A stretch of 64,000 bases of DNA, from positions 2,480,001 through 2,544,000 of the forward strand of contig CM069154.1 in the NCBI GenBank assembly GCA_035221665.1, written 5' to 3'. The translations under genes and the position numbers were made by a program. Origin of the DNA: Okamejei kenojei (lineage: Eukaryota). The notes under the pieces were generated by a model. The model saw only the letters and a list, made by a program, of their open reading frames with translations. It made no database searches and was not told where the DNA came from. This document shows, one piece after another, positions 1 to 39,339 of this stretch (position 1 is the first letter of the stretch; the number at the start of each line of letters is the position of its first letter).

Positions 1-112
1 CTCGATTCCCCGACCCTGGGCAAGAGGCAGTTTGCGTTTATCTGATCGGTTCCTCTCATGATTTTTTTCCACCTCAACAAGATTGGTCCTTAACATCTCC
101 GTCTCTGGACAG

Positions 113-2559: not shown

Positions 2560-2870
2560 CTTTAGAGAAACAGTGGAAAAACAGGCACTTTGGCCCACCG
2601 AGTCTACGCCGACCAGCGATCACCCCATACACAAGCACTATCCTACACACTAGGGACAGTTTACAAATTGCAGAAGGCAATTAACCGACAACCCTGTATG
2701 TTTTTGGAATGTGGGTAGAAACCGGAGCACCCGGAGAAAACCCACGCGGTCATAGCGAGAACGTGCAAACTCTGTACAGACAGCAGCCCAAGGTCAGGAT
2801 GGAACCCAGGTCTATGGCGCTGTAAGACAAGCAAGCGGTGTGTCTTCCGCTGCGCCACTGTGCCACCTCC
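2560..2870 (-). mobile_element. tRNA-derived SINE (inverted homologue at 28090-28385)
   Basis: A-box-like GGTGGCACAGTGGCGCAGCGG and B-box-like GGGTTCCATCC. Confidence 0.72.
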
Positions 2871-3855: not shown

Positions 3856-3960
3856 ACTGTGGTCAACAAACAACTCGGAACTTCCACCACCGATTGTCCA
3901 TCACAAAGATAATTTTTGCTGTTAAAACAATAAAATAAAGTCATAATTGTAAGCATATAG
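3856..3960 (+). other. Putative non-coding terminal (3'UTR) exon of chitinase copy 1
   Basis: Donor-like AAG|GTGAGA 9 nt after the stop; acceptor TCTTTCTGTTGCAG ending at 3855; overlapping AATAAA at 3929-3939. Conserved in copies 2 (25360-~25255) and 3 (50120-~50020). Confidence 0.6.
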
Positions 3961-4633
3961 CGGCATACTTTGTGTTTGTTCATGTACATCAGTTCCTGGA
4001 GCAGAATCAGGCCATTTGACCCATCAGGTCTACTCCGCCGTTCAATCATGGCTGATCTATCTCTCCCTTTCAACCCCATTCTCCTGCCTTCTCCCCATAA
4101 CCTATGACACCTGTACTAATCGAGAATCTGTCAATCTCCGCTTTAAAAATACGCACTGACTTGGCCTCCACAGCCATCTGGCAATGAATTCCACAGATTC
4201 ACCACCCTCTGACTAAGCAAATTCCTCCTCATCTCCTTCCTAAATGTTCTTCCTTTTATTCTGAGGCTGTGTCCTCTGGTCCTGGACTCCGTAAATAATG
4301 GCAACATCCTCTCCACATAGACTCTATCCAGGCCTTTCACTATTTGGTAAGTTTCAATGAGGTTCCCACCACCTCATCCTTCAAAATTCCCCTCATCCTG
4401 ATAAAGAGTTTATCAATTAAAGTCAGCAATTTCAGTTGATGAATTGAATTGAATAACTGTTGAATTAACTACATACAAGAATTTGCCTCACAAGTTACAA
4501 CACGATATGCAGTTAACAATTAGGAATGAAACATTACAATTTAAACATGTGAAGAATTAAATAAAATACCAGAACACAAGGAGGCTGCAGACTTCTGGTT
4601 GTTGAGTAGAGCTGCTGCTCATGGAAACAAGCT

Positions 4634-4798: not shown

Positions 4799-5005
4799 TA
4801 CTCCCGGCTTCCCCTGACCCTCATTGCCTGCGCTCACGTACTTTCAACCAATCACTGCCTCCCACGGAGCATTGGCCGTAGTCAGCCGCGACCTCTGCCA
4901 AACGTGTCGTTGCATCAGCATCAAGAACAATGCCATCCCAGCTGCCAGCGGCCAACCAGGCGCCCTACACATCCTGCTTCTGTCTCCACCACATCTCGCT
5001 CTGGC
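4799..5005 (-). other. Orphan IgV-family promoter fragment (no gene body)
   Basis: Homologous to 15455-15680 including the ERSE at 4848-4866; truncated just before the TATA box. Confidence 0.75.
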
Positions 5006-5934: not shown

Positions 5935-8900
5935 TCCGGTGGCGCTAATGGTGGAGTAGGTTGTGCGCCAGCTAGCTCCACGTGAAAAAGCCGGGAAAAA
6001 ACATGAGTAAAATAAAGACCTGACCTGCAGAAATTGCTCCGGCAGCCTGCGTGACGTCATCAGACCCCGACTCTGGAGACCTAATGTCGGTAACTCGCTT
6101 CCCCCACAAAGGAACCGGTTAAAAAAACTACAAGAAGTAAACAACCGAAGGAGGAAGTAGGCCCGACTGAAGCCTCGGGTTCCGTTTTAACGTCGTCCCA
6201 GGAGGACATCTCAAAGGCCCAGAAGACAAAGATAACAAAAAGTGAAATGGAGGAACTTCGCAACCTCATCTCAAGGGAAATTGAAAGTATAAAAGAAGAA
6301 TTGATAAGCTTTAAAAAATAATTGATTAAAGAAATTCTGAAAAGTTTTAAAAAAAGAGATTAAAGAAGATTTCTCAGATTTTGAAAATAAAATGACTAAT
6401 CTTGTCCGTATGGAACTGGCTACCATGAAGGAGGAAATGTCTGCAAATTTCGACTTGCAAATCAATGAAATAAACGAAAAAATTAAGTCGGATGAAACCA
6501 ACTTTAATGATAAGCTGGAGTCGGCCTTCACTACAATGGATCAACAATTGGAGCAATGAACTGATGCCATAACTCACTTGGAAAGCACTACAGAGACACT
6601 CCTTGCCGAGAACAAGCGTTTATCAGATTTACTGTATAAAGTAACTGAAAAATGCATTGACTTGGAGGGCCGTCAGAGACGTCAGAATTTAAGAATTGTT
6701 GGCGCTCGAGAGGGTAAAGAAGGAACTAAAGATCTCCGTGACTTTGCCGCAGACTTATTAAAAAAAGTCTTGAATTTAGATCAAAAGCCCTTATTAGGCC
6801 GGGCACACAGAGTTCTTGGACGTCGCTCGGACCCGACCCCAAGGCAGCTGATAGTGAAGGTGCAATACGATCATGTTTTGGATGACATCATGAAAAAAAT
6901 TGCTGGCACCAGAAATCTTATGTTTGATGGAGACAAAATAAGCATATTTCGAGATTACCCTGCAGAGGTGGTCAGAAGGAGAGTGTTATTCATCAAACAA
7001 GAGGGATTCTTAAGAAGATAGATAACTTGAGATATGGATTGCTGTACCCTGCAAGATTGAGAGTCACTTATCAGGATATCGACAGCTGAGCAATCCTTCT
7101 TGTTATGGACATACTATTCTAATATTTTAATACTAATTTTTACTAACAATTACTAATCATTAAGAACACTTGTTATTATTATTGGAATAATTAGTTAAAA
7201 ATATGAAATGTAAAAAAGGTATAATTTAGATATCTTATTAATTGGAATTTGCTATGTTCTTCCTTTTTTTACATCAGACTAACATTTGACTAATAATTAG
7301 CCAAGAGAGTAATAGTTTCTCACTACATGATTACTAACATTCTGGACCAAAATAGTCCTAATTTAATCCCGTAAATTACTTTTATTGAAATTTTTAAGTG
7401 TGGAGCTAGGAATAATTTTTTAAGTCTACGGAAGTCCTTAGATGGTCAGCCACGCTAGTGTGGCTAGCACCAGCTACACTAACCTTAGATGTAGTTTCTT
7501 TTTTCTTCTTACACTTTATTAATTTTAATTTTTTTACTTTTGGTATTTTTTACTTAATTACTATTTTGAACTTGAATTAATTTACAAATATTATTTGTGG
7601 AGAATGTCCGGGAGGAAGATTTATTTGAATTAGATTTACAACTCATCTGTCCTGTGTTCGGGTGGAATGTCAGGTTTACGGTGTTCTTTTATAGACCACC
7701 CTAACCACAAGATGCAAGATGTTAATAGAAAAAACGGGGTTCAAGGAATCACTTTTGTAGTTGGAATGTTAAGGGAATTAATGAATCAATCAAGAGAGGC
7801 AAGGTATTAGCACACTTAAAATCACTCAAAGCAGATATAACATTTCTTCAAGAAACCCACCTTAAAAGCGACGCACAATATAGATTGAAAGCAAAATGGA
7901 TCGCTGAAACATATCATTCTTCATTCTCCCATAAGGCCAGAGGTGTCGCAATTTTAATTCGTAAAGGTATACCTTTTAAACACATATCAACTATTGTGGA
8001 CACTAATGGTAGATATATTATACTAGTGGGTGAATTATATCTAAAAAAAGTGATTTTTCTTAATGTCTGTGGACCAAATTTTGACAACCCACAGTTTTTT
8101 AAGAATATACTTAATACTATCCCGGAGCTCACACAACATAATTTGATAATCGGTGGAGATTTAAATTGTACACTAGATTCTTATCTTGATAGATCATCAA
8201 GACAAAGAAAAGTAGAATCTAAGACAAGCGAATTACTAAACTCATACATTAATACTCCCAATATCAAGGATGTTTGGAGAATTGAAAACCCATCTGGAAG
8301 GGAATACTCATTTTACTCACCGGTACATAAAACCTATTCAAGGATAGACTACTTTTTAGTAGACTCTAAACTTATCCCATTTACTTATAACTCGAAATAT
8401 GACCATGCTCCTGTAACATTTATGATCAAACTAAGTGGAATGGCTGACAAGCAGACACAATGGAGACTTAATCTGTTAAATGATAAAGCATGTTACGCAT
8501 GTTTTTTGAGACAAACGACTGCCCTGAAATATCTGCCTCCCTTCTTTGGGAAACATTTAAAACATTTATACGAGGAGCGTTAATCTCCGCGCAAGCCTTT
8601 CGTAATAATGAGAACCGCGCCAAACAACTGGTATTGGAAATGGAAATAAGGCAATTAGATATGTAAAATGCAATCGCGCCTTCTACGATAATACATAATA
8701 AAATTGCTGCTCTCAAATATAAGTTAAACCAAATATATTCAGACCAAATCATAAAGTTTTATCAAAAAACTAAACAGCTACACTTTGAATTCGGTGATAA
8801 ACCACAAAAATTACTGGCACATCAACTCCGGAAACAGGAAGGGGAGAAAACAATATATAAAGTTAAATCAGATATGGGAGAAATATTAACATTACCCAAG

Positions 8901-10915
8901 GATATTAACGATAGGTTCCCTCACTACTATCAAACACTTTACTCAACCAAAACGACAGTGGGTTCAGCAGGAATCAAATTATTTTCACAGAAATGCAATC
9001 TTACAGGTTTAGACCTGAAAGAGAGGGAATTATTAGGGGCTGAAATATCAGTAAAAGATATTGAAGAATCTATTAGTTCTTTAAAAAATGGAAAGGCCGC
9101 TGGCCCAGATGGTTTAAATAGCGAATTTTATAAACAATTTCATGATCTGATCTCGCCACGCCTACAGACATTATATACTCAAGCATTCATGCAACAGAAA
9201 CTTCCAGAAACTTTAAATGAATCAACAATATACTTATACCAAAAACGGATAAGGACCTTGAAGACCCAGGTTCCTATAGAGCAATTGCTCTCTTAAACAC
9301 CGATCAGAAAATATTAACCAAAATTTTAGCACATAGATTAAGTTTAGTGATTCATAAATTAATACACCCCGATCAAACAGGCTTTATTCCAAAACGTTAT
9401 TCATATTATAATCTGAGACGATTATTTAACATTACATACTCAAATAGAATAGCTAATGTAGATTTAGCAGTCATCTCGTTAGATGCTGAGAAAGCATTCG
9501 ATCAAGTGGAATGGCCCCACTTATTTTCGGTGATGGAAAAATTTCAACTACGTGAGAAGGCCTGTACTTGGGTTAAGCTTTTATATACCAACCCAACAGC
9601 TAGAATAATGACAAATCACATGTTATCAACAAAATTTGATTTATCTAAAGGTTGTAGACAAGGATGCCCGCTATCCCTGTTACTATTCACCCTTGTTATT
9701 GAACCACTAGCAGAAAGAGTTAGAGCACACCCAGAAATATATGGGTATAATACTAAAAATACAGTTAACAAAATTTCTCTATATGCAGATGATGTATTAT
9801 TATATATTACAAACCCAGAAATCAGCATCCCTAACTAGTTAAATCTTATAACTCAATTTGGTTTATTCTCGGGATACAGAATTAATTGGAATAAGAGTGA
9901 GATTATGCCAATAACGGAACTTAATTTATATATATTGCAAGAATCACCTTTTAAAATAGTGAATGAAAAATGTAAATACTTAGGAATTTACATGACCAAG
10001 AAATATACTTTATTCAAATCAAATTTCGTGCCTTTACTTAATAAATTCCATAAGAATATTCAATATTGGAAAACACTTCTCATTTCAATGCTCGGTAGAA
10101 TTAATGCTATTAAAATGATTTTCCTTCCTCAACTACTATACCTCTTTCAATCAATTCCGATATATCTCCCAAAAATGTCTTTAAAAAAAGTTGACTCTAT
10201 TGTAACAAGTTTTATTTGGGATTATAAGAATCACAGAATATGCAAAAAACACTTATGTAAACCCAAGACGAATGGAGAATCAGTCTTACCAAATGTCTTA
10301 TTTTATTTCTGGGCAGTCAATGTCAAAAACATAAATTTCTGGTTGGAAGATATGGATCAACAACCAGACTGGTTAAAGATGGAAAAGGAGGATTATCTGC
10401 CTTTTGAAGTTGGTCCAATTCTGTTAGCTCCTACAAATTTGAATTAAAAAATCTATAGTGAAAATCCGATAATACATAGTGGTATTCGAATTTGGAAACA
10501 ACTAAAGAAGACATTAAAATTGGATAATTTATCACTTTCTCTCTCTATTGCAAATAACCCTTCATTTAAACCTTCAGTATTGGATAAAGGTTTTGCACAA
10601 TGGAAAAATTATGGGATTAAAAAGCTGGGACATCTTTATAGAAAAGGTGTGTTCCTCTCATTTCAGGAGGTACAACAGAATTATGGATTACATTCAAATA
10701 TATTTTTTAGATATTTACAACTTAAAGATTATGTTATATCACATACACAAAAATACAGAACTAGAGAGCCAGAGATTCTAGATGATTGTTTGAATAAACA
10801 CCCCAACACAGTCAAATTAATATCTTACATTTATAGTACTCTTTTAGATAGTGACATTCCGTCGACGGAATTATATAGACAAGCATGGGAAAATGAATTA
10901 GTTCAACCCATAACT
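5935..10915 (+). mobile_element. Degenerate L1-clade LINE (ORF1 and ORF2 with APE endonuclease and RT), 3'-truncated
   Basis: ORF1 remnants (DLEGRQRRQNLRIVG...) at ~6084-7080. ORF2 remnants: GGDLN, YSRIDYFL, GPDG, SLDAEKAFD, GCRQGCPLS, LYADD (~9780), KYLGI. Many stops and frameshifts. Confidence 0.92.
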
Positions 10916-11391
10916 TCGGGAGCGGCTGCTTTGCCAGTGCCGACGCCCCCTCGGCCTGTGCTGAAGTCCCCTGTTTCATCACCGGGAATGCTGGTTCAAT
11001 CTCCGTCACCCGTGAAGCCACCGGCTCTGTCCGTGGTTGGGAAAAAACGGAGATGGTTTTTATCACACCCAAGCTGGTTGTGTTTGCAAGCCCACAGTGA
11101 AGTACCCAGGCTATGTTTGACTTCCCTCCAGCTTATTATCAATTGCTATCCATGCCTTATTTAGTCAATGGTTTTGTACTGACATTTAATTTTTTTAAGA
11201 GGGAGGATGTAGATCAGTGTCACTCGTGTTATGAGTCATACTTTGTAGCTACGCCCACTAGTTTGACAGAAAGCTTCTCAGCCCTTTCTCCCTCAGTCTT
11301 GAGTTACGTATTAAGATGAAGTTACCTACGCTGTAACGCTAATAAAGTATTTGTATCTTAATCACTGTGTGTGATCTAAGTTATTCCAACA
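10916..11391 (+). mobile_element. 3' end of an LTR retrotransposon (Gypsy-like): pol tail, PPT and 3' LTR
   Basis: Pro-rich tail ending HTQAGCVCKPTVKYPGYV*; polypurine tract AAGAGGGAGGA at 11197-11207 directly before TGTAG...CCAACA (11208-11391) with internal AATAAA. Confidence 0.7.
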
Positions 11392-14264: not shown

Positions 14265-14811
14265 TCACTGGATTGTCAGCCGGGCCAATTCTTCACATTC
14301 CTTATCACAAAAAGTGGTCCAGACACAGGAATATGTCCCCTCATCTTTCTCTTTTACGCCTGTCAGGAGCAATGAGCCGTCAAATTCAGGAAATGGATTT
14401 TCATGCACGAACTCGCAGTGGACATCAGATCCGTGATATCGGTGAAGTATTCCAGTATGACTCATGGCAATTTCAAGACCATCTTTTCTCCATGTAGCTA
14501 CACGGAGATATCCGTAATCTTTGGATACTTTACAGGGCAGCGTAATAGAACCACCCAGAGATGCAACGAGCACCTTCATGTTAATCGATGATGGTGCTCG
14601 TTGATAGGTGATGACGGTATGCATCAGAATCTGTCTCGTTCGTGCAACTTGGAAGCTGTTTATCGTTGACTTGCAGAGGCGCCCGTGCGTTCCACCCGGG
14701 CAAGTTTGCCTCCTCTCCCCATTCTCCGGAGATCGGACCTGTTCCAGTTCCGGAGACTTGCCACACCATCTCCTCAAGGACCATGAACCCTATCCATCTC
14801 TGCAGTCCCAT
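14265..14811 (-). pseudogene. Secreted single-IgV prepro-protein, copy A (divergent, frameshifted)
   Basis: Leader MGLQRWIGFMVLEEMVWQVSG...RAPLQVN stops at 14581. The V domain (GGSITLPC..W..DGSLLLTGVKEKDEGTYSC..RLTIQ*) continues in another frame to 14265. Same acceptor (CCCACAG|GAACATG) and post-stop motif as the other copies. Confidence 0.75.
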
Positions 14812-15340
14812 GTTCCTGTGGGTGAAACAATGGGTCACCTTATTGCAACTCAGTAGGATTCATGATGACATTCTCTGAACCCGTCCAGAGTTGGGGAATC
14901 GAGAACCAGAGGACATCGGTTTAAGGAGAGGGGGGGGAAAGATTTAATGGGAAACTGAGGGGTGACTTTTTTACACAAAGGGTGGAGGTTGTTTGGAACG
15001 AGCTGCCGGAAGAGGTAGTTGAGGCAGGTACTATCACAATGATTAAGAAACAGTTAGACAGGTACATTGATAGGGCAGGATTAGAGGGGTAAGGGCCAAA
15101 TGCTGGCAGGAGGGGCAAGTTGGTGGGCGCGGGAAAGTTGGGCCGAAGGTCTCGCTATATGACTCTATGACTCCATCACTTGTCCCACCCCGGTCATTCC
15201 TGCCTTCTCCCTGGTCCTGTCTAGCAGAAGGTACAGAAGCTTGAAAGCGCGCACCACCAGACTCAGGAACAGCTTCTTCCCCTCTGCTATCAGGCTTCTG
15301 AACTGGGGGAACAGTGAACAGAGACAATCCAACCCCCATC

Positions 15341-15690
15341 ACTCACAGGCACTTGAAGGATCCACAGGGGTGGTTACCAGCTCCAGAGTCTCCACACAGG
15401 GTGACGAGGCCGGTCTTGTTCACATCTCCTGCCATCGCTCGCTCCTTTTATACCTACTCCCGGCTTCCCCTGACCCTCATTGCCTGCGCTCACATACTTT
15501 CAACCAATCACTGCCTCCCACGGAGCATTGGCCGGAGTCAGCCGCGACCTCTCCACCCTCTGCCAAACGTGTCGTTGCATCAGCCGTTAACGTTTAACAA
15601 GAACAACGCCACCCCAGCTGCCAGCGGCCAACCAGGCGCCCCACACATCCTGCTTGTGTCTCCACCACGTCTCGCTTCGGCCACCGATCA
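15341..15690 (-). promoter_or_regulatory. IgV copy A promoter plus non-coding exon 1
   Basis: TATAAAA at 15452-15446, ERSE CCAAT-N9-CCACG at 15504-15522, second CCAAT, donor GTGAGT at 15346-15341. Confidence 0.7.
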
Positions 15691-16855: not shown

Positions 16856-17374
16856 AAGTCAACTCAAGTCAACTCGACTCAACTGAGCTAAAGGCAACTC
16901 CATGACATTTAATTTTGCTGCTCAGACCTGTTAAAATATTCTGGATTGGAACAAGTAAGGTCAGTTCAGTTTGACTTGGGATGCAAATAATAATGGTTCC
17001 GACTGTTAATGTTGAGGAGGGATTTCAATGCGCTGATCAAGGGATAAACACCCTCTTTACATCTTGTTCCACTAAAGCAATCAAAATCTAGAGACCACAA
17101 CATGGCTCCTCCACAGTTGTTGGTCATCAGCCATTGGCCTGCGGAAAAGGATGGAAAACCATAACTGGAAAGTGTCTTTTGTTGAGGAGCCTTTTAGGCA
17201 ATAAAACACATGGATATAATATGTAAAAAGCAAAATAATTCAATGAATGAGAGAGCACAATACTAGTGTGTAAAGCCAATATCCTTAGTACAACCAAAGA
17301 CAGTTCATGGACGTTCATCGTTGACCTCAGTGTCGTGCCGTGTTCAAGCTGGTTGTTGGGAAGGAAGAATTGAT

Positions 17375-17868
17375 CCAATCACTGCCTCCCACGGGGCATT
17401 GGCCGGAGCCAGCTGTGACCAATCCCACCGCACCGCCGGCTCAGGTGAGTATAAAGTGTGAAACCAGCGCAGGTGCCAGGGTGGTGGTGGTGACGTGGCG
17501 TGGCTGGGACATCCAGTCCGAATGTTGGCCAGAGCGAGACGTGGTGGAGACACAAGCAGGATGTGTGGGGCACTTGGTTGGCCGCTGGCAGCTGGGATGG
17601 CGTTGTTCTTGTTAAACGTTAACAGCTGATGCAACGACACGTTTGGCAGAGGGTGGAGAGGTTGCGGCTGACTCCGGCCAATACTCCGTGGGAGCCAGTG
17701 ATTGGTTGAAAGTACGGGAGCGCAGGCAATGAAGGTCAGGAGAAGCCGGGAGTAGGTTTAAAAGGAGCGAGCGATGGCAGGAGATGGAAATAAGACCAGC
17801 CTCATCACCCTGTGTGGAGACTCCGGAGCTGGTAACCACCCCTGTGGATCCTTCAAGTGTCTGTGAGT
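17375..17868 (+). promoter_or_regulatory. IgV copy B promoter plus non-coding exon 1
   Basis: ERSE at 17375-17393 and (reverse) 17687-17705, TGACGTGG at 17491, CCAAT at 17678, TTTAAAA at 17757, donor at 17863. Confidence 0.7.
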
Positions 17869-17894
17869 GATGGGGTTGGGATTGTCTCTATTCA

Positions 17895-18250
17895 CTGTTC
17901 CCCCAGTTCAGAAGCCTGACAGCAGAGGGGAATAAGCTGTTCCTGAGTCTGGTGGTGCGCGCTTTCAAGCTTCTGTACCTTCTGCTAGACAGGACCAGGT
18001 AGAAGGAGGAATGACCGGGGTGGGACAAGTCTTTGATTTTTTTGGTTGTAGATGGAGTCACTGGTGGGGTGAGTGGTCTGTGTGATGGACTGGGCTCCAT
18101 CCACAACTCTGCAATTTCATGTGGTCTTGGGCTCAGAGCTGTTCCCAACCAAGCTGTGGTGCAACCCGACAGTCTGCTCTCCGTGGTGCATCTGTAGAAG
18201 TTTCTAAGAGACATTGGAGACTTGCCATATTTCCTCGGTCTCCAAGGAAG
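17895..18250 (-). mobile_element. Rex1/Babar-type LINE 3' fragment in IgV intron (related copies at 15180-15305, 20865-20990, 31290-31620, 41030-41385, 42765-43120, 55925-56250)
   Basis: Peptide RNFYRCTTESRLSGC...RRYRSLKARTTRLRNSLFPSAVRLLN. Confidence 0.7.
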
Positions 18251-18429
18251 TTGATGCCACTTCAATGTTGTTGGTCAACGACAGGTCAAAGCAACTTAAA
18301 ATAAAGCAGGCGGGAGCTGAAGAAGCTGCACAGCGACATTGCCCAGTGTGGTGGCAGCAGCTTCAGAGAATGTTATCATGAATCCTACTGAGTTGCAATA
18401 ATGTGACCCATTGTTTCACCCACAGGAAC

Positions 18430-18945
18430 ATGGGACTGCAGAGATGGATAGGATTCATGGTCCTTGTGGAGATGGTGTGGCAAGTCTCCGGAACTGGAAC
18501 AGGTCCGATCTCCAGAGAATGGGGAGAGGAAGTAAACTTGCCCGGGTGGAACGCACGGGCTCCTCGACAAGTCAACACACAAGAAACTCCAGAATGCGGT
18601 GTTAAGCCATATTTGAACAAGATGAAATGGACAGAGATGACGGCACGCAAGGGTGGTTCTGCTACGCTACCCTGTAAAGTACCCACAGGGAAGGGTGGAC
18701 CCAAGCATTTTGTGGTCACCTGGAGTAAAGGGAAGGGGACACTGGGCGTGTTTACTGAAGGGAAAGGTCCAATCTATCCAGGAGGTTCCGGCCGCTGGAC
18801 GTTCACGAAACCAAATGTGGTTGAGACACGGGATGCCTCGTTGACTATCACGGGTTTACGCGAGACTGATATTGGGATATATTCCTGCGCTTGGTTCACT
18901 AGCCAAGGGGAATGCAGACTAAATATCAAGCTGACTGTGAAGTGA
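18430..18945 (+). CDS. Putative secreted single Ig V-set domain prepro-protein, copy B (171 aa)
   Basis: Acceptor AG at 18424-25, ATG at 18430. Hydrophobic N-terminus, RAPR|Q, V-set motifs GGSATLPC, VTW, DASLTI and D-x-G-x-Y-x-C; no TM segment. AATAAA at 19370. Non-coding exon 1 ends at donor GTGAGT 17863. Confidence 0.85.
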   Translation: MGLQRWIGFMVLVEMVWQVSGTGTGPISREWGEEVNLPGWNARAPRQVNTQETPECGVKPYLNKMKWTEMTARKGGSATLPCKVPTGKGGPKHFVVTWSKGKGTLGVFTEGKGPIYPGGSGRWTFTKPNVVETRDASLTITGLRETDIGIYSCAWFTSQGECRLNIKLTVK

Positions 18946-19589
18946 AACCTCCCACTGATTCAGCACAGACCCCTCCAAGTGTCAGGAGCAACAGGCAGTG
19001 GCAGGTCAGCACAAACACAATAACATCCCTCATTATAAACTTGACACACTTAGGCCAACAACAGCATTTTATATTGTAGTCACTGAATTCATCATGAGGG
19101 GAATAGAGGGGTGAACACTAAGCATCTTTTACCTGGGGTACGGGAATCAAGGGACATAAGTTTAAGGTGAGAGGGGCAAGATTTAATAGCAACCTGAGGG
19201 GCAAAATCTTTACTCAGGGGGCGGTGGGTTTATGGAACTGTCCGGTTGGGCGGGAACTGTAACAATATTTAATACACAATTGGTACAGGGAAAGGTTTAG
19301 GGGGATATGGGGCAAAAGTAGTGCAATGGAACAGACCCTGCTTGCACCGGTAAATGTACCATTAATGGAAATAAACTCTCTTGAAGACAACCGGTGTGAG
19401 TGATTCTTTGTACGCCAGCATTGAGTTGGGTGTGAACTTTGTGCAACTCCTGCTCACTACGGGCAGCATCGCTGGGTTCTATGAGCTGTGTCCATCATTG
19501 GTCATACCACATGGGGACGGAACAACATGTGGAAAATCAGGAGTCTGCAGATGTTGAGAACAGGAACAAAAATAAAGGGGAATGATGTC

Positions 19590-20140
19590 AGGAACAAAAG
19601 TAAAGGCAGATGACACAAAAGTAGGTGGTTTTGCAGATAGTGGAGATGATTGTGAAAAACTGCAGCAGAATCTTGAACTATTGGCCAGGTGGGCTGAGGA
19701 ATGGTTGATGGAATACAGAGAAATGTGAGGTGTTGTATTTTGGGGAGTCTAACATGTGCAGGACCTACACAGTGAATGGCCCGGCTCTGGGGAATGTTGT
19801 AGAGCAGAGGAATCTATGAGTGAAGGTGCATGGTTCCTTGAAGATGCAGTCACAGGTAAATAGGGTGGTCAAAAAGGCTTTTAGCACATTGGCCTTCATC
19901 AGTCAGAGTATTGAGTATGGAGGTTGGGAGGTCATCTTGCAGCTGTACAAGACATTGTTGAGGCCACATTTAGATCCCAATGTTTAATAAACAGTTGGAC
20001 AGGTACATGGATAGGACAGGTTTGGAGGGATATGGACCAAACACAGGCAGGTGAGACTATTGTAGCTGGGACATGTTGGCCACTGGGACATGTTGCAACT
20101 TGGGCCGAACGGCCTGTTTCCACGCTGTATCACTCTAGGA
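19590..20140 (+). mobile_element. Degraded CR1 fragments (duplicate at ~44455-45005)
   Basis: GCAGATGACACAAAAGTAGGTGG (ADDTKVGG) and downstream CR1 RT-like sequence. Confidence 0.7.
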
Positions 20141-20522
20141 CTCTATTACACTATGACATTAAATAAATAATGATTATAAAATGAAATTTCACATAAATCT
20201 CATCTTCTCCTCTGGCTGTATACACAACACACTCATTGACTGAAGCAGATACAATGAATGTCACACTGGTGGTAACCAGGGCACCTCTGGAAAATGTTCT
20301 TCTCAAGATGTGATTGAGAAGATGATGCAACATAGAACATGGAACAGTACAGCACATGAACAAGCCCTTCGGCCCACAATGTCCGTGCTGAACATGATCA
20401 CCATGGAAAATTGGTTCTGACTGTCTACCCTATCTGGATCTCATACTTTTATAACTTGTGCAAGAGGCCAATGCAAGGGAGGCACAGTGGCGCAGAGGTA
20501 GTGTTGCTGCCTTCCAGCGCTA

Positions 20523-20830
20523 TGTGTGGGGCGCCTGGTTGGCCGCTGGCAGCTGGGATGGCGTTGTTCTTGTTAAACGTTAACGGCTGATGCAACGACA
20601 CACGTTGGCAGAGGGTGGAGAGGTCGCGGCTGACTCCGGCCAATGCTCCGTGGGAGGCAGTGATTGGTTGAAAGTACGTGAGCGCAGGCAATGAGGGTCA
20701 GGAGAAGCCGGGTGTAGGTGTAAAAGGAGCGAGCGATGGCAGAAGATGAGAACAAGACCGGCCTCGTCACCCTGTGTGGAGACTCTGGAGCTGGTAACCA
20801 CCCCTGTGGATCCTTCAAGTGCCTGTGAGT
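20523..20830 (+). promoter_or_regulatory. IgV copy C promoter plus non-coding exon 1
   Basis: Reverse ERSE at 20649-20667, TGTAAAA at 20719, donor GTGAGT at 20825. Confidence 0.68.
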
Positions 20831-21374
20831 GATGGGGGTGGGATTGCCTCTGTTCACTGTTCCCCCAGTTCAGAAGCCTGATAGCAGAGGGGAAGAAGCT
20901 GTTCCTGAGTCTGGTGGTGCGCGCTTTCAAGCTTCTGTACCTTCTGCTGGATAGGACCAGGGAGAAGGAGGAATGACCGGGGTGGGACAAGTGATGGAGT
21001 CATAGAGTCATATAGCGAGACCTTCGGCCCAACTTGCCCGCGTCCACCAACTTGTCCCCTTCAAACCTACACCCACCTGCCTGCTTTTGGCCCTTACCCC
21101 TCTAATCCTGTCCTATCAATGTACCTGTCTAACTGTTTCTTAATCATTGTGATAGTACCTGCCTCAACTAACTCTTCCAGCAGCTCGTTCCAAACACCCT
21201 CCACCCTTTGTGTAAAAAAGTCACCCCTCAGTTTCCCATTAAATCTTTCCCCCCCCTCTCCTTAAACCGATGTCCTCTGGTTCTCGATTCCCCAACTCTG
21301 GACGAGTTCAGAGAAGGTCATCATGAATCCTACTGAGTTGCAATAAGGTGACCCATTGTTTCACCCACAGGAAC

Positions 21375-21890
21375 ATGGGACTGCAGAGATGGATAGGATT
21401 CGTGGTCCTTGTGGAGATGGTGTGGCAAGTCTCCGGAACTGGAACAGGTCCGATCTCCAGAGAATGGGGAGAGGAGGCAAACTTGCCCGGGTGGAACGCA
21501 CGGGCTCCTCGGCAAGTCAATGAAGATCCAACTCCACAATGCGGTGTTAACCTAGCTCCGGACAAGATGAGGTGGACGGAGGTGACGGCCAGTAAGGGGG
21601 GTTCTGCTCAGCTAGCCTGCAAAATGCCCAAAGAAGACGATGGAGCCGATACATTTGTGGTACTGTGGACGAAAGGAAAAGATACGATCGCCGTGTTTAC
21701 TGACAGGAACGGTGCTCAATATCCAGGGTCACCCGGACGCTGGAAGTTCATGAAAACAAACGTGGTTGAGACACGGGACGCCTCGTTGGTCCTGGCGGGG
21801 CTGGAAGAGGAAGATGCTGGGAAATATTCCTGCGCTTGGCTGGTTAATAACGTGCCGTGTAAACTAAACACCAAGCTGACAGTGCAGTGA
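21375..21890 (+). CDS. Putative secreted single Ig V-set domain prepro-protein, copy C (171 aa)
   Basis: Acceptor at 21369-70, ATG at 21375. Leader 47/49 identical to B. V domain GGSAQLAC..VLW..DASLVL..DAGKYSC. AATAAA at 21957; exon 1 donor at 20825. Confidence 0.85.
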   Translation: MGLQRWIGFVVLVEMVWQVSGTGTGPISREWGEEANLPGWNARAPRQVNEDPTPQCGVNLAPDKMRWTEVTASKGGSAQLACKMPKEDDGADTFVVLWTKGKDTIAVFTDRNGAQYPGSPGRWKFMKTNVVETRDASLVLAGLEEEDAGKYSCAWLVNNVPCKLNTKLTVQ

Positions 21891-22235
21891 AACCTCCCAC
21901 TGATTCAACACAGGCCCTTCCAAGGGACAGGAGCACGATGATTTCAGTGACTACAAAATAAAATGCTGCTCCTAAAATTGGTGTTGACCTAAGTGTGTCA
22001 TATTTATAATGACAGACATTATGGTGGTGTTGTGGTGACCTGCCCATGACCTGCCTATTGCTACTGTCCCTTCACCATGCAATTACCCAATCACAGCATC
22101 ATCTCCTTCCTAAAAGAACGTCCTTTAATTCTGAGGTGTGACCTCTAGTCCTAGACTTTCCCACCAGTGGAAACATCCCCTCCACATCCACTCTATCCAA
22201 GACTTTCACTATTCTGTATGTTTCAGTGAGGTTCG

Positions 22236-22270
<35 letters not shown>

Positions 22271-24114
22271 ACCTCTCTGCCCACTCTCCCAACCTGTCCA
22301 AGTCCTCCTGTAGAGACTCCACCTATTTTTGTATCCCTTTAATACCATGGGCACTCATCTTCCTTAGCAGCCTCACGTGTGGCACTTTATCAAAGGCTTC
22401 CGAAGGGGAGTTCAGAACCAGGGTAACAGTTTAAGAATAAGGGGGTAGTCCATTTAGGACTGACATGAGGAAAAAAAATCACCCAGAGAGTTGTGAATCT
22501 GTGGAATTCTCTGCCACGGAAGGCAGTGGAGGCCACTTCACTGGATGTTTTCAAGAGAGAGTTAGATTTAGCTCTTAGGGCTAACGGAATCAAGGGATTT
22601 GCGGAAGAGCAAAAAGCAGGACTTGGACTGGGTAGTGATTTTGGATGATCACTTTGCAAAAACAGGAAAGCAGACTATTATTTAAATGGTGGCCGATTAG
22701 GAAAAGGGGAGATGCATATTGAATGGCGGTGTTAGCATGCTTGAACAGGAGCTGAATGCCCTGCTCCTCCGCCTATTTTCCATGTTTCTATGTTTCTGTG
22801 ACTCGCTGGAGCCACAACACAGCTTAGGATGTGTGGGGCACTCTCTGCCACAGAGGGTTTGTCAACTGTCGGGACATCTTTGATGCAGCCACAATTCGTT
22901 AGTAATTAACGGAATGGCGGTGCTGCTTGACTCTAACCACACAGAGGACAAGTCTGGGCACCACTCTGTGAACGACAATGTTTGCTTGACACCAGTTTGT
23001 ATTGGGGTGGCACAGTGGTAGCATAGCTGTAGAGTTACTGCCTCACAATGCCAGAGACCCGGGTTCGATCCTGACTACGGGTGCTGCCATTAAAGTTTTT
23101 GCATGTTCTCCCAATGACAATGGCCAGACCCTTTTCACCAGAAGAGAAATACCAATTACCACAGGACATCAGACAGACAGTTTGAGTAGATCATCAGAAC
23201 AATTTTCCCAGGGTGGGAATGTAGAGGGCAGAGCTTTAAGGTGAGAGGGGCAAAGTTTAAATGAGATGTGCGGGGCAAGTTTTTTTTACACGGAGAGTGG
23301 TGGGGGCCTGGAACGCGCTGCCAGGGGTGGTGGTGGAGACAGATACGATAGTCGTGTTTAAGAGGCTTTTAGATTGGCACATTGACATGTAGGGAATGGA
23401 GGGATACGGATCACGTGCAGGCAGAGATTAGTTTAACCTGTCTGCAGGTGAATGGTGGAATCTGGGAGAAATTGAAAACCATATAGGGAGAATAAAGTTG
23501 GATTAGATTAGTGTACGATTTGTGTAAATGGATGGCTGATGGATGGCATGAACACAAAGGGTCTGTGTCTCTCTGAAAACAAGATTGTGCAAAAGCTTGA
23601 AAGGTAAGTAACTGCACGTGACTGTGACATTCATATTGATGTGTTCCTTCCCTCTGGAAGGCGACACCGGACTGTCGAAGCTCAACATCTTTTTTTCCAT
23701 GAGCAGTAGCTCTACTCAACAACCAGAAATCTGTAGCCTCCTTGTGCTCTGGTATTTTATGTCATTCTTCACATGTTGAAATTGTAATGTTTCATTCCTA
23801 ATTGTTAACTGTATATCGTGTTGTTACTTGCGAGCAAAGCACCGAGTCAAATTCTTGTATGTATACATACTTGGCTAATACCACTTATTCAATTCAATTC
23901 ATAGCAACAGAAATTGCTGACTTTAATTAATAAACTGTTTATCAGGATGAGGGGAATTTTGAAGGATGAGGGGGTGGGGACCTCATTGAAACTTACCGAA
24001 TAGTTAAAGGCCTGGGCAGAGTGGATGTGGAGAGGATGTTGCCATTATTTACGGAGTCCAGGACCAGAGGGCACAGTCTCAGAATAAAGGTAAGTAACTT
24101 TAGGAAGGAGATGT

Positions 24115-24985
24115 GACCTGGACAGGTTGAGTGAGTGGGCAGATGCGTGGCAGATGCAGTATAATATACATAAATGTGAGGTTATTCACTTTGGCGGCAA
24201 AAAAGGGGGCAGATTATTATTTCAATGGCGTTAGGTTAGGTAAGGGGGAGGTACAGCGAGACCTGGGTGTCCTTGTACACTGGTCACTGAAAGTTGGCGT
24301 GCAGGTAGAGCAGGAAGTGAAGAAAGCTAATGGAATGTTAGCCTTCATAACAAGAGGATTTCAGTATAGGAGTAAAGAGGTTCTTCAGCATTTATATAGG
24401 GCTCTGGTGAGACCACATCTGGAGTATTGTGTACAGTTTTGGTTTCTAATTTGAGGAAGGACATCCTTGTGATTGAGGCAGTGCAGCGTAGGTTCACGAG
24501 ATTGACCCCTGGGATGGCGGGACTGTCATATGAGGAAAGATTGAAAAGACTAGGCTTGTATTCACTTGAGTTTAGAAGGATGACGGGGGGATCTTATAGA
24601 AAAATTATAAAAAGGACTGGACAAGCTAGATGCAGGAAAAATGTTCCCAATGTTGGGCGAGTCCAGAACCAGGGGCTACTCTTAGAATAAAGAGGAGGCC
24701 ATTTACGATTGAGGTGAGAAAAAACTTTTTCACCCAGAGAGTTGTGAATTTGTGGTATTCCCTGCCACAGAGGGCAGTGAGGGCAAGTCACTGGATTGAT
24801 TTAAGAGAGAATTAGATAGAGCTCTAGGGGCTAGTGGAATCAAGGGATATGGGGAGAAGGCAGGCACGGGTTATTGATTGGGGACGATCAGCCATGATCA
24901 CAATGAAACGTGGTGCTGGCTCGAAGGACCGAATGGCCTCCTCCTGCACCTATTTTCTATGTTTCTATGTTACTATGTTTCTATG
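24115..24985 (+). mobile_element. CR1 LINE 3' fragment (duplicate at ~48860-49740)
   Basis: RT C-terminal peptide DLGVLVH..KKANGMLAFI..LYRALVRPHLEYCVQFW..EAVQRRFTR; (TTTCTATG)n tail. Confidence 0.88.
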
Positions 24986-25981
24986 AGATGAGGAGGAATT
25001 TCCTTAGGGTTAGGGTGGTGAATCTGTGGAATTCATTGCCACAGACGGCGTGGAGGCCAAGTCATTGGGTATTTTTAAAGTGGAAATTGACAGATTCTTG
25101 ATTAGTACAGATGTCAGAGGTTATGGGCAGAAGGCAGGAGAATGGGGTTGAGAGGGAGAGACAGATCAGCCATGATTGAATGACGGAGTACACTTGATGG
25201 GGCAAATGGCCTAATTCTGATCCTGGAACTGATGTACTGACACAAATTACGTTGTTATATGCTTGAAATTATGACTTTATTTTATTGTTTTAACAGTAAA
25301 CAATTATCCTTGTGATGGACAATCGATGGTGGAAGTCCCAAGTTGTTTGGCAAGCGCAGTCTGCAACAGAAAGATCATCATTAGATTTCTCAAAACCAGG
25401 AAGGATGTCTACACATCAGATCAAAAAAATATCTATAGTATGTCTTTTTTTTAAAGTTTCTAGTTTAGTTTAGTTTATTATTGTCACGTGTACCGAGGCG
25501 CAGTGAAAAGTTTTTTTGTTTGCGTGCTATCCTGTCAGCGGAAAGACTACACATGATTACAGTCGAGCCGCCCACAGTGTACAGATACAGGATGAAGGGG
25601 TTAACGTTCAGTGCGAGGTAAAGTCCAGTAAAGTCCGATCAGAGATAGTCCAAAGAGTGATGGGGCTACACAGCAGGGAGACAGGCCGTTCAGTGCATAC
25701 CTGACCCTCACTCATTTCCCCAACATTCCCATCAGTTCTCCCCAGATTCCATCCCTCACCTACCCACGAGGGCAATTTACAGAGGGCCTGTCAACCTACA
25801 ACCCTGCGCGACTTTGGGAGGAAACCGGAGCTCCTGGAGAAAAATCCAAACGGTCATGGGGAGAACGTGCAAACTCCGTCACCCAGAGAGTTGTGAATCT
25901 GTGGAATTCCCTGCCACAGAAGGCAGTGGAGGCCAATTCACTGGATGCTTTCAAGAGAGAGTTGGATATAGCTTTTAGGGC

Positions 25982-27872
25982 CAGGAGTGCAGTGCTGCCG
26001 GAGGGCACCCCTGTAAAAAACAAACAAAATAATGGGGAATTTTAATGAGCAGGTGTGTGTGGGTGAGGTAACCTCATTAAAAGAGGGGGAAGGGGAAGAC
26101 CCATCACTACTGATGGGTTTTCAATCACTACTGATGGATCTTCCCTATAGGAGTGTGGGTTTGGGGGGGCACTAGGACCCAGCAGAGTCATCACTACTGA
26201 TGGGTCTTCCCTATAGCGTACGGAGGGGGGGGGGGGCACTAGGACCCAGCAGAGTCATCACCACTGATGGGTCTTCCCTATAGGGGAGTGGGGGGGTGAG
26301 GCACTAGGACCCAGCACAGTCATCATTACTGATGGGTCTTCCCTATAGGGGAGTGGGGGGGTGAGGCACTAGGACCCAGCACAGTCATCATTACTGATGG
26401 GTCTTCCCTATAGGGGAGTGGGGGGGTGAGGCACTAGGACCCAGCACAGTCATCATTACTGATGGGTCTTCCCTATAGGGGGGTTGGGGGGGGGGCACTA
26501 GGACCCAGCACAGTCATCATTACTGATGGGTCTTCCCTATAGGGGGGTTGGGAGGGGCACTAGGACCCAGCAGAGACGAGCCACGTGCTGTCTGCTTCGT
26601 GGCGGTTAGTTGTGGGCCTCGTGATGTGCCTGGACCTCTGGTGAGGTGAGTGTCGGCTCCGCCCGCTGGTGGCCGCTGGGGAGGGGAGGCGACGGTCGGC
26701 GGAGTCGCTGGCGGAGGCCCGTAGATAGAGATACGCGTCGGCGGCAGCAGCATCGATGGCCGGGGAGGCAGTGGGTTTTGTTGCTGCTCCTGGCGGTGGC
26801 CATTTCCGCCTCATGAGGGTGAGCGTGCGTCGATGTAGCAACGCTACAAAACTTTGAGATTTAAAAAATCAAGTCTGCAATTTATCCCATCAGATAAAGC
26901 ATAAACACAAGTTTAATTTGACACCTAATTCACTTTCATATCTTCAATATTAAAAAAGTTATGGCCATTTTCATACTCTGAAATTAGCATCTTGTTCCCT
27001 ATTGCTTTTCCATTAACTTAACACAAAAGCTGTGATCAAGGACAGTTAAAAGCCCATAACTTTTTTTTTTAAATTAAGAGAACTGAATGAAAATTTCAGT
27101 ATTTATAGATTGAAGCATTCTGAAACAAATATGAAACAATCTTACTTGAATGACCTGAAATTAAAACATATAATTAGTTAGTTACCTAATTGTAGCTAAT
27201 TACAAAATTCAATTACTAGACCTAAACATCTATCCATTTCTTAAGAAAAGGTTAACATTTTTAAAAAGTGTCCAGATAACATTCACACAGGAATTCACAA
27301 TATAATATGATTTTTAAATCTCATTGTCATGAATTTATAGGCTAAATTGAAGGAATTTAGTGTTTAATTCCCGTAAATTAATGGCCATTTAAATCATCTT
27401 GCGAGTGGGTTTTTGTGGAACGTGAAGGATTGGAACTTTGCGGTTTTGTGGTGAATTTAACCCCCAGTCGGCAGGAAAAATACTGACGGTTCGTATATTT
27501 TTAAAGTCACCTTTTCGCAACACGAAATTTTGATTAAAGGCTTCCTAAGAAGCACGTGTTTATGTAAAAATAAACTGTGTACCTTCTTTTGTCCCCTACG
27601 TAAGATCCGTCCGTTGTCAGCGTAGACGGCTTTAGAAGATGATTTTTAATTCACTCTAGCTATTAAATTATTCAGCGCAGTTTAAAAATACCTTCATAAA
27701 ACAAATGTCGGAGCAATTTCTCTTCAGCAACTAAATCCCCTGAGATTAATCGATTTGAAATAGTCTGGAGTAAATGACATTTTAGAGAAAGTTGAAAGAC
27801 CTGCAGCGCCGCTGAAGGTAGGTTTTATAACATACCTAGTCAGTGTGTGTCAGTGGGTGAGAGTGTGTGTGT
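25982..27872. mobile_element. Unclassified ~1.9-kb insertion carrying a minisatellite (duplicate at ~50739-52492)
   Basis: Interrupts a CR1-tail repeat that is contiguous in the inverted homologue at 3100-3260. Confidence 0.55.
26095..26575. repeat. ~65-bp G-rich minisatellite, 7 units (5 units at 50850-51205)
   Basis: CTAGGACCCAGC at 26172, 26239, 26304, 26369, 26434, 26498, 26560. Confidence 0.92.
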
Positions 27873-28581
27873 GGGCCGAATAGACTACTCCCGCACCTAT
27901 TTTTTTCTAATTCCACACATGGACAGCTCCAGTAGTCAGGATTGAACCCGTGTCTCTGGAGCTGCGAGGCAGCGGCTTGACCCGCTGCACGGCTACATTC
28001 TCTGGAGCATTTTCTGGAATGGTCGCCTGTTTCCTGGCCTGTTGGTTCCCTTGCCCACCGCCACCACCACAGTCTTCACCCAGAGAGGAGGTGGCACGGT
28101 GGCGCAGCGGTAGACATACCACTTACATATCTTACAGCACCATAGGCCCGGGTTCCATCCTGACCTCGGGTGCTGTCTGTACAGAGTTTGCACGTTCTCG
28201 CTGTGACTGCGTGGTTTTTCTCCGGCTGCTCCGGTTTCCTCCCACATTCCAAAATCATACAGGGTTGTCGGTTAATTGGCTTCTGTAATTTGTAAACTGT
28301 CCCTAGTGTGTTGGATAGTGCTAGTGATCGCTAGTCGGTGTGCTCGATGGGCCGAAAGGCCTGTTTTCGCGCTGTTTCTCTATAGACTAGAGGTGAAAAT
28401 ACTATGACCAATGAATGTTTAGGGTGGCCAGTCACATACTACTCTTGTGTTTCTTACCCCACGAGCATTAGGGTCAAGTAGGGTCAGTATGGACTTGTTG
28501 GGTTGAAGGGCTGGTTCGGAGATGTATGACACGATGCCTAGTATTGAGTGTGAGGTAGGTAAGCAGTCTCACCTTCTGCCA

Positions 28582-31500
28582 TTAAGGCCAGTTGCAGCAT
28601 TTACAGGATGAATCAAAGACTAATCCTGCGGCACAGCTCTTCAGGTAGGTCCGACCATCATCGCACTGGTAGAACTTGCTCTTGTCCTTGGGATCGGGGA
28701 AGGTACCGTTCGCTTTGCCCTTACAGAAGCCACTGCCTCCACCACTGCTGCCTCCACCACCGCTGCCTCCACCACCGCTAGGAGCATCAGTAGGTGGGAC
28801 CGCTGGCTTCAATGTTGTCTTGGATGGGACGCAAGCTGCAAAGAAACACAGTTCGTTATGTTCTCCTAAAGTCTTAGAAGAATTAGACGATTTGGCCCAT
28901 TGACTTACTCCACCATTCAATCATGGTTGATCTATCCCTCCCTCTCAACCCCATTCTCCTGCCTTCTCCCCATAAACCCTGACACCCAAACTAGTCAAGA
29001 ATCTGTCGATCACCGCCTTAGAAAATACCTGTTGACTTGGCTTCCGCATCCGTCTTAGTTCATGTAGAAACAAGAAACCACAGATGCAGATCTACAAAGT
29101 GTGAATATCCCAGTCAATGGGATAATGCCACTGAACCCCCCTCTCATCAACTCCAGAGGGGTCCTGACCTCGCATCTACCCCAGATGCTGATCCATAAAA
29201 AGAGACACAATGTGCTGGAGTAACTCAGTTGCTTGTTCCCTATACCCACCACCCTCTGTGTGGAAAACGTAGCTATCATTCCTAGTCCTACCACTATCTG
29301 CCTCCACCACCACCCCCGGTAGCGTGTTCCCGGCACCCACCACCCTCTGTGTGAAAGACGTGTCCAGCACATCTCCATTACCTCCAGAGATGCCAAGGCC
29401 TGAGTGCAGAGTGTTGATGAGAGGGTAGGGTCCCTGATGACAGAAGGCACCAGAGAAGTCATCCAGAGCCAGATCCCAGACCATAGCTCCTCCAAGTTGT
29501 TCTTCTTCAGCCACTCAACCTGGAAGACACAGTTCACAACTTTACACCAGCATCCCTGGCTCAATAATGGCTTCTACGATGCGCCGTAGAAAGCTTTTTT
29601 ATCGGGATTCATCACAGCACGGTTTGGGAATGACTCCATCCAAAACCCGCAGGAAATTGCAGCAGTTGCTGACGCAGCCCAGACCATCACGTAAACCAAC
29701 CTCCCTTCCATTGACTTCATCTACACCTCACGTTGCTTTCAGCAAGGCCACCTGCATAATCGAGGACCAGTCTCACCCCAGCACCAGAGAAATAAAAACA
29801 GAAATTCCAAGTTTCCCCGATGTGAATCCTAACCCCTTTCTCCTGCCTTCTCCCCATAACCCTGACACCTGAACACCATGAGTTTATGGTGAGCTGGAAT
29901 ATTTTGCAGAATGTAATGACAAAAGATTCTAAGGATTTTGAAGGATTCTGGAGTTCACTGTTTGAAACTCTGCAGTAGATATTGAGATAAACGAGACCCT
30001 GATGGCTCACGTGGAAAGGGTGGAACTTCGATGGTCAGCTGTACCTTGTCTCCGAAGCTCTTGATGTTGTCATAGCCGACCCATATTCCATCCTTGAAGG
30101 CGTACGGGGTGTCCTGAGGGGCGTTCCATACGGCGGTGGCACCGTTCAGGAACCCGCAGATCTGTCCAGAGACGGAGATGTTAAGGACCAATCTTGTCGA
30201 GGTGGAAAAAAATCATGAGAGGAACCGATCAGGTAGATGCAAAGTGTCTCTTGCCCAGGGTCAGGGGAATCGAGAACCAGAGGACATAAGGTGAGGGAGA
30301 AAGATTTAATAGGAACGGTGCTGGTTCGAAGGGCCGAATGGCCATCTATTGTCTATTAAACCTGAGGGGTAACCATTTGACACCGTGGGTGGTGATAGTG
30401 ACAAAGGCTGGAGGGGAACAGAAGACAAAGTAGTGTCAGATACTGAGCGGAGAGGAGCAGATGTAGAGAGATGCGCAAAGCGAGTAGGAAAGAGGAGAGA
30501 GATATGTGAAGAGAAGAGAGAAAGAAATGAAAGAGGATAGGAGAGAAAGATATATAAAGACAGGAAAGAGAGATATGTCCAGAAAGTGGAGGAGAGAGAT
30601 GTAAAGCGGGAGGGAGGGATGTGGAGAGAAGGAGATAGCGGGGAGGGCAAAGATTAAGGGGAGGATAGAAGGGAAGTGGGGATTTCTGAGAGGAGAGGAG
30701 GGGAACGGAGAACGGGGTGGGCGATGTTTCGGATGGCGATCCATTCCTCATGTGTCCATCTATGTTGTGTGTGGTTATTCAGTATTGGATTGGAAGATAA
30801 CATTGAGCTAAAGGGCCGCGCGGTTGGAATGGTCGGTAGGTACAGTACCTCATAGTAGGCCAGGAAGCCGGCTTGGCGGGTGTATTTGCCGGCTGGTCCA
30901 GCGCCTCCTGCTGGGGCACCCACAGCCGTGCTGGACGAGGTCAGTCTGAAGGTGTGTCCATAGGTGGGGAAGCCCACATTCAACTTGTCCACTGGAGCCC
31001 CTTGCTCTTCCAGTAGTTCATGCGTATTCCTGCAGGGACACAGTTGGCATCAAAGGACTTTAGGCTCATGTTTAAGTTTATTATTGTCACGTGTACCGAG
31101 GCACAGTGAAAAGCTTCCAAACAGATCAGATAATACCGTACATAAATACAATCAAATCAAACTCGGGTACAATAGGTGGAGCAAAGGGGGAGATACAGAG
31201 AGCAGAATATAGTTCTCAGCATCGTAGCGCATCAGTTCCACAGACAAAGCCCAATGTCCGCAATGGGGTAGAGGTGAATCGGACAGTACCCTAGCTTATG
31301 GAAGGACCGTTCAGAAGCCTGATAGCAGAGGGGAAGGAGCTGTTCCTGAGTCTGGTGGTGCGCGCTTTCAAGCTTCTGTACCTTCTGCCGGACGGAGCAG
31401 GGGAGAAGGAGGAATGAGCGGGCTGGGACAAGTCTTTGATTCTGTTGGCTGCTTTTCTGAGGCAGTGTGAAGTGTAGATGGAGTCAATGGTGGGGGAGTG

Positions 31501-39322: not shown

Positions 39323-39339
39323 CTTGTTACTGTTGCTGA

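Follow-up and report, generated by a model that had tools for sequence, protein, structure and literature searches.

Structure and extent of the family

What is made by the small two-exon genes that recur in a 64,000-nt stretch of the skate Okamejei kenojei genome (GCA_035221665.1, contig CM069154.1, 2,480,001-2,544,000, forward strand; hereafter the window), and is it, as a sequence-only reading proposed, a free immunoglobulin (Ig) V domain released from a toxin-like precursor? That reading listed six copies, A to F; their positions are correct, but only three (B, 18430-18945; C, 21375-21890; E, 43297-43812) are intact open reading frames (ORFs) encoding the protein described, each of 171 aa. 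A hydrophobic N-terminus leads in these three to a 25-aa spacer ending in RAPR/Q (the slash marking the predicted cut), followed by one V-set domain and a stop codon, and both the ORFs and the Pfam V-set scores (41.6 bits for B, 36.5 for C and 41.6 for E, with a cut-off of 26) agree with the earlier description of this layout. A germline family with a signal-like leader, a spacer and a single V domain, having no transmembrane (TM) segment or tail, had also been proposed, and the arrangement is kept as far away as the electric ray Narcine. We conclude that a batoid-restricted, previously uncharacterised family of predicted secreted single-V pro-proteins is real.

The reading we put forward, which as a whole we regard as evenly balanced between right and wrong, is that these two-exon batoid genes give secreted, pro-cleaved free V domains that serve as a germline binding set in a mucosal or glandular secretion. 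In this view one exon codes for a predicted signal peptide, the spacer of 25 residues and one V-set domain that probably came from a nectin/PVR receptor; the product would be secreted and then likely cleaved at Pro-Arg/Gln, and the resulting free V domains of ~125 residues would together form the binding set. Gene conversion would keep the signals for expression, secretion and processing uniform, with selection likely removing conversions that reach the V domain. The parts of this reading are not equally firm: the family is almost certainly functional, its product is very probably secreted, and an immune or microbe-binding role falls a little short of an even call.

Every copy has a short upstream exon ending CT/GTGAGT and an acceptor, CAG/GAACATG, that stands 4 bases ahead of the ATG, so that signal, spacer and V domain all lie within one exon; the junctions predicted earlier at 17862/18426 for B and 20824/21371 for C do carry GT and AG. 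The B promoter block (17561-17773, + strand) is common to all copies, is 95-99% identical between linked paralogues and has 13 matches in the genome, all on the same contig; it contains a motif of the endoplasmic reticulum stress response element (ERSE) type at ~17687-17705 and a TATA-like TTTAAAA at 17757. Exon 1 of B (17774-17862, +) runs from an upstream in-frame ATG to the GT donor and is either 5' untranslated region or a 31-aa N-terminal extension, and the intact exon 2 (18426-18945, +) comprises the predicted signal (18430-18492), the spacer (18493-18567), the V domain (18568-18942) and the stop. In C, exon 1 is at 20736-20824 and the intact exon 2, with its ORF from 21375, at 21371-21890 (both +), and an AATAAA is found at ~21957.

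Copy E (42641-43812, +) is an intact duplicate of B with 3 nt differences, and F (45601-46756, +) duplicates C but is thrown out of frame by 1 nt in a run of G near 46640, a shift that is either real or an assembly error. D (40730-41975, +) has a G-type promoter lacking the upstream ATG fused to B-type coding sequence, and is truncated at about residue 141 where the tandem-duplication junction cuts it. A (14265-15648, -) is a pseudogene retaining promoter, exon 1 and an exon 2 from 14811; it is frameshifted near 14590, which leaves only 76 aa from its ATG, and RAPL replaces RAPR. Since D, E and F sit in a 24.8-kb tandem duplicate diverged by about 1%, the distinct intact genes in the window are two, not six. 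The duplicate itself (17112-41975 and 41973 to beyond 64000) shows ~1% mismatches and many 1-nt gaps in base runs, and is either a recent duplication or an uncollapsed haplotype. The earlier reading also overlooked the in-frame exon-1 ATG (17774), an invariant Cys pair (C56/C162), four copies beyond the limits of the window and the chitinase genes alongside.

The four copies outside the window, found by genome search on the same contig, are the intact G (175 aa), I (179 aa) and J (177 aa), the last located 26.6 Mb away, and the broken H. There are thus five independent intact copies in the O. kenojei genome (B, C, G, I and J). In H (L003:4651 to L004:831) an insertion of ~5.7 kb interrupts the gene immediately behind the spacer. 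Protein searches gave relatives in batoids only (two skates and one electric ray): eight uncharacterised little-skate proteins (LOC129708937-46), one from Rhinoraja, one from Narcine named 'nectin-1-like', and one unnamed Logan protein (P0159). These 10 RefSeq homologues and the Logan protein all terminate at, or shortly beyond, the V domain. No shark member was found among the protein-search matches, from a word-based search of limited reach and the best 150 of 1324 profile hits; just two of those 150 were short single matches covering leader and V. Of 7998 candidates scored in a search for longer forms, just one came back as a match, an unrelated copepod hemicentin; by itself this is weak evidence. 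An open-access literature search found nothing on the family or its gene ids. Its earlier description as unassigned stands in so far as databases offer no functional name beyond 'nectin-1-like', and fails in that the V domain is most likely nectin/PVR-derived, as set out below.

A stop follows the V domain in all intact members, and no good splice donor lies near the V end. No TM exon was found between B and C. In ~31 kb on the 3' side of C, G, I and J, scored for hydropathy and with donor weights, there are five weak hydrophobic stretches; two have an acceptor-like site, and for none does the V end offer a donor that matches.

Transcription is supported by two spliced contigs. P0159, of 202 aa including exon-1-coded residues, is encoded on a 900-nt contig that must be spliced, because retention of an intron of ~540-560 nt would require ~1170 nt. 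The second is a single 216-nt contig of low depth (3.6) from run X1, which is presumed to be RNA; it matches B from 18424 at 89%, while its differing upstream part comes from an exon whose GT donor, 8.7 kb ahead of J, is joined to the J acceptor. Four of its six listed differences from B are those of J and two are not. The upstream exon seen in this contig is 50 nt long (L015:1480-1529) and is spliced to a J-type acceptor. Three runs from the same species were also aligned over 17300-22300; repeats were covered and most exons were uncovered, so these are uninformative on expression.

Gene conversion of the promoter and leader

The linked paralogues A, B, C, G and I were compared block by block. 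Promoter and 5' intron are 95-99% identical and leaders 92-99%, with V domains at 52-71%; dS is 0.03-0.14 in the leader vs 0.38-0.78 in the V domain, and the homogenisation extends to promoter, intron and synonymous sites. The V domains pair across species (C with P0003 at 91% identity, G with P0006 at 84% and B with P0001 at 78%, with tree support of 97/92 for the first pair and 100/100 for the second), and the paralogues are therefore older than the species split. The leaders behave otherwise: codon 21 is Gly in all nine linked O. kenojei copies and Ala in the unlinked J and in all eight little-skate paralogues, and exon 1 has two more species-wide differences. Because the V paralogues predate the split, yet species-specific changes have swept all linked leaders, the near-constant leader is, as judged from these alignments, a product of concerted evolution through gene conversion. 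Hypermutation of the V region in place of conversion was rejected, leaders being more alike within species than between orthologues.

The constancy of the leader is not merely of the toxin kind, much of it being traced to conversion, which takes in promoter, intron and synonymous sites. For the same reason the ERSE-type motif, present in 8 of 10 proximal promoters, counts as one observation and not eight, because the promoters are converted. Mismatch clustering begins at nt 145-147, 2-3 codons past R46 and in mid-exon, which would be an unusually sharp endpoint for gene conversion, at the predicted processing site. We infer that this boundary may have been fixed by selection where the functional mature domain begins, and that divergence would then have maintained it passively.

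Leader, spacer and cleavage

The hydrophobic stretch of the leader is 12 residues long, and small residues stand at -3 and -1 ahead of position 22. Over its best 19 residues B reaches a hydropathy of 1.05, less than an ordinary TM anchor would have, and a putative cleavable signal suits the leader better than an anchor does. A Glu in the hydrophobic region had been thought to make the signal peptide less certain, but this is not a serious objection, since J has Gln and Narcine has Gly at that position.

An R-X-X-R site at the boundary, also proposed earlier, is found in 13 of the 16 intact proteins and fails in the others, including the most distant, Narcine, although Pro-Arg is kept in 14. 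The Narcine leader is only 33-41% identical, yet its pattern and P-R/Q-V are both kept, and because I-D-P-R/Q-V stands in a spacer that is otherwise unalignable, we take P-R/Q-V as the conserved core. J likewise keeps RAPR/QV although 7 residues are deleted just upstream. Candidate enzymes are furin, or a protease preferring Pro at P2. A cut at Pro-Arg/Gln (R46/Q47) that releases the free V domain is somewhat more likely than not.

The same region can be read as secreted and unprocessed, the spacer staying as a flexible N-terminal arm and RAPR being kept in skates only through the converted tract. The spacer is indeed unstructured in the model (predicted local distance difference test, pLDDT, below 50 for residues 8-51), RSYW and RAYF stand in place of the motif in two intact paralogues of the little skate, and homogenisation includes synonymous and non-coding positions. 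Against this stand the Narcine core in its unalignable surroundings, the J site beside its deletion, and the end of the converted tract at the site itself, in mid-exon; we consider a permanently retained spacer unlikely.

The mature domain and its origin

In the predicted structure the mature domain folds at pLDDT 86, and the V-set hallmarks of the Ig superfamily (IgSF) are present: a profile score above cut-off, the B-F Cys pair, the C-strand Trp and D-x-x-x-Y-x-C. Four Cys are invariant across 16 sequences, the second pair C56/C162 included, and a putative C56-C162 disulfide would pin the N-terminus exposed by cleavage onto the G strand. Antigen-receptor V genes have a J-type G-x-G in the G strand or are open V segments awaiting a J; here the G strand is complete without a J-type G-x-G and is followed by a stop, and the family does not belong to the antigen-receptor V genes (Ig, TCR or IgNAR). 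The ESM Atlas gave generic V-set clusters only.

Fourteen V columns are invariant across 15 sequences, and paralogue identity across subfamilies is only 29-59%, with mature isoelectric points (pI) of 4.3-9.8 and net charges from -14 to +12. Codon models were fitted with our own implementation to 123 codons of B, C, G, I and J, broken copies and E being excluded. They give a V-domain ratio of nonsynonymous to synonymous change (dN/dS) of 0.94, with ~20-24% of sites constrained and dN/dS near 1 at ~80% of sites; tests for positive selection on these five sequences were not significant (M1a/M2a p 0.19, M7/M8 p 0.18, M8a/M8 p 0.065). The five V domains contain no stops vs ~23 expected without constraint, the copies having been picked as intact.

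Among solved structures the best matches by sequence are PVR/CD155, nectin-2 and CD226, and by fold nectin-1, CAR and nectin-3 (Z 14.9, root-mean-square deviation 1.7, 101 aligned), the top matches being tied within 1 Z. The next matches of the Narcine protein in the O. kenojei genome are nectin-type V exons, and among the proteins compared the best domain outside the family is the V domain of a shark 'nectin-2-like' model (XP_067831298.1) at 52 bits, the next scoring 45. In a 34-row tree the family falls on one side together with the nectins, at only 88/86. The nectin/PVR family is described, in the excerpted text of PMC10486284, as having an AX6G lock and a T(F/Y)P key; by the motifs as given there, Narcine keeps both the lock and a TYP key. 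The V domain likely derives from a nectin/PVR-family receptor, as far as sequence and modelled fold can indicate. Separately, the shark model (P0154) looks like two genes fused; its residues 1-230 comprise a single V, a TM segment and Tyr motifs (LVYASL), and this first part, the best outside match of the family, resembles a TIGIT/PVRIG-type receptor.

Such an ancestry also suits free V domains with a non-immune task, either as soluble modulators of host nectin/PVR adhesion and signalling or as fast-evolving reproductive or glandular proteins. The lock, by the excerpted definition, is kept in the B/C clade and Narcine, and lineage restriction with fast divergence is also typical of reproductive proteins. 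By that definition too, however, the lock is lost in 8 of 15 sequences and the key in 14, and the spread of identity and pI exceeds what one conserved host ligand should allow; a non-immune role is improbable.

Choice of start codon

In 6 of 10 copies the exon-1 ATG has a good context and is in frame, adding 31 residues; D and G are without it, and in H and J it is out of frame. The Rhinoraja model begins at MGLQ, and the extension of the Narcine model does not align. On these grounds the extension looks dispensable, though P0159 shows that some transcripts include it.

Were this ATG the main start, the product would be a 202-aa protein with a 36-residue n-region, possibly a type II signal anchor from which V is shed at R46 or by which it is held at the surface. 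The frequency and context of the ATG and the presence of the extension in eight RefSeq models and the spliced P0159 are what such a product would predict. The intact G nevertheless has no such ATG, that of the intact J is followed by stops out of frame, the Rhinoraja and Narcine models share no related extension, the TATA box lies just 18 nt upstream of the ATG, and the hydrophobic stretch is short; we think an anchored product quite unlikely.

Toxin and decay explanations

Direct killing or poisoning, with the pro-piece as a safety catch, draws on the signal-pro-mature layout with its constant leader and variable mature part, on the cationic character of B, G and several homologues (pI 9.1-9.8), and on Narcine, whose spacer carries about -6 and mature part +6 (counted by eye); but the skate spacer, likewise counted by eye, has a net charge of 0, mature charge varies in sign across members, conversion explains the leader, and intact copies have no toxin match, the only hit being a below-cut-off Toxin_3 alignment of 21 residues (E-value 0.03) in pseudogene A. 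A toxin- or defensin-like action finds no support, the analogy holding for layout only, and we hold it very unlikely. That these are decaying duplicates of little function, carried along by chitinase-cluster duplications, would fit the near-neutral majority of V sites, the four of 10 copies broken in the assembly and the orphan promoters described below, but is scarcely credible given the constrained V sites and invariant columns, the open frames across three skates and Narcine, and the spliced contigs.

Genomic context

Nine of the 10 copies are embedded in a cluster of chitinase genes, at least 14 in number. In the window, a GH18 chitinase gene with CBM14 (28582-39364, -) is tail-to-tail with C and head-to-head with D, their TATA boxes ~1.56 kb apart, and a duplicate chitinase gene (53202-64000, -) is head-to-head, at the same spacing, with the intact G just past the window. 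We hypothesise that the family may be co-expressed with the chitinases. That V might be fused to the CBM14 exon of a chitinase was rejected, the two being on opposite strands.

The cluster spans G000:C24:2113814-2669845, where all 50 PF00704 matches fall and at least 14 catalytic-exon copies are found. Orphan family promoters having neither exon 1 nor a V exon occur at 4799-4972 (-) of the window and at G000:C24:29132509-29132734 (-). A fragmented LINE-like element, with endonuclease-like and reverse-transcriptase-like ORFs recognised by eye, lies at ~6500-11200 (+), and positions 1-4630 are an inverted duplicate of 23691-30274 at 87-93% identity, which includes the 3' end of a chitinase gene.

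Weighing the proposal

Several observations pull against the proposed binding set of secreted V domains freed from a pro-piece. RxxR is absent from three of the 16 intact proteins and Pro-Arg from two, and P2 is never basic. In skates the site falls inside the converted tract, so that its conservation there is partly passive, and diverged V domains halt conversion by themselves, so that the boundary need not be actively kept. P0159 and eight RefSeq little-skate models have the hydrophilic 31-aa extension ahead of the hydrophobic stretch. A dN/dS of 0.94 without significant positive selection also fits relaxed constraint, and at least three of the 10 copies (A, D and H) are clearly broken, with F possibly so. 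As to origin, a strict AX6G, as the excerpted source defines it, is found in 4 of 15 sequences, GX6G in 3 more and the key in 1, skates keeping the lock at most; in a free tree the family is not one clade, Narcine grouping with nectins, although monophyly is not rejected (p 0.23 in the approximately unbiased test). Finally, J lies 26.6 Mb from any GH18 match, and the chitinase link is not obligatory.

The near-identical front end and strongly differing domain of the skate copies nonetheless suit a likely set of binding proteins. If this is true, cartilaginous-fish biology gains a lineage-specific class of secreted V-domain binders, and the family shows how the domain of a membrane receptor can become a pro-protein effector. 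The little skate is kept in laboratories, so that LOC129708937-46 open expression and function to direct testing. As scaffolds, natural V domains that stand alone and have an additional putative disulfide are of interest.

Comparison with known systems

Nectins and PVR are type I membrane proteins with a TM segment and tail. Nectin/PVR proteins (CD155, nectin-1 and -2, TIGIT) have the closest V domain by sequence and fold; unlike them, the family is without TM segment, tail or further Ig domains and has the spacer and the extra Cys pair. Leader and V share one exon in the family, whereas skate nectin V exons are spliced on both sides, and the lock and key motifs, as the excerpted source gives them, are mostly lost in skates. 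VSTM2L, SIRP-delta, IL-18BP and VpreB consist of a signal peptide and one Ig domain with no TM segment, and are similar to the skate proteins in this; they are not among the matches listed, and to our knowledge none is a converting multigene family with a cleavable spacer.

Defensins, frog skin peptides and conotoxins combine a constant leader, a variable mature part and a basic cleavage site. The skate family resembles such precursors in its conserved leader and highly variable mature region, the cause here apparently being gene conversion, and differs from these prepro-peptide families in that leader constancy reaches promoter and intron DNA. Mature defensins and toxins are small and consistently cationic or of toxin fold, in contrast to a folded 125-aa Ig domain of varying charge.

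Teleost SITR, with two Ig domains and CD300-like, and the genome-encoded soluble receptors LILRA3 and LAIR2 are multigene or paralogous soluble IgSF proteins of membrane-receptor descent according to the excerpted text of PMC3031540. The genes described here would resemble them in this; unlike SITR they have one Ig domain, and a pro-piece is not described for SITR in that excerpt. In amphioxus and Ciona, by the excerpted account of PMC7916673, each VCBP chain combines two V domains with one that binds chitin. The family shares with the VCBPs so described germline, diversified V domains with no TM segment, and its genes adjoin chitinases that have a chitin-binding domain; it differs from that description in having one V and then a stop, with CBM14 exons on the opposite strand and no fusion. 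There is no sequence evidence of kinship with the VCBPs, which bind bacteria and opsonise them, and no VCBP chain was among the best 50 matches of a wide fold search, with likeness still possible. A speculative and rather doubtful extension is that a free V repertoire from a PVR-family receptor, sharing a converted promoter-leader cassette and secreted in the gut with chitinases, is a split, independently evolved counterpart of the VCBPs. The family belongs to neither the VCBPs, SITR nor the nectins proper, but it may act in the manner of a VCBP or of a soluble receptor encoded in the genome.

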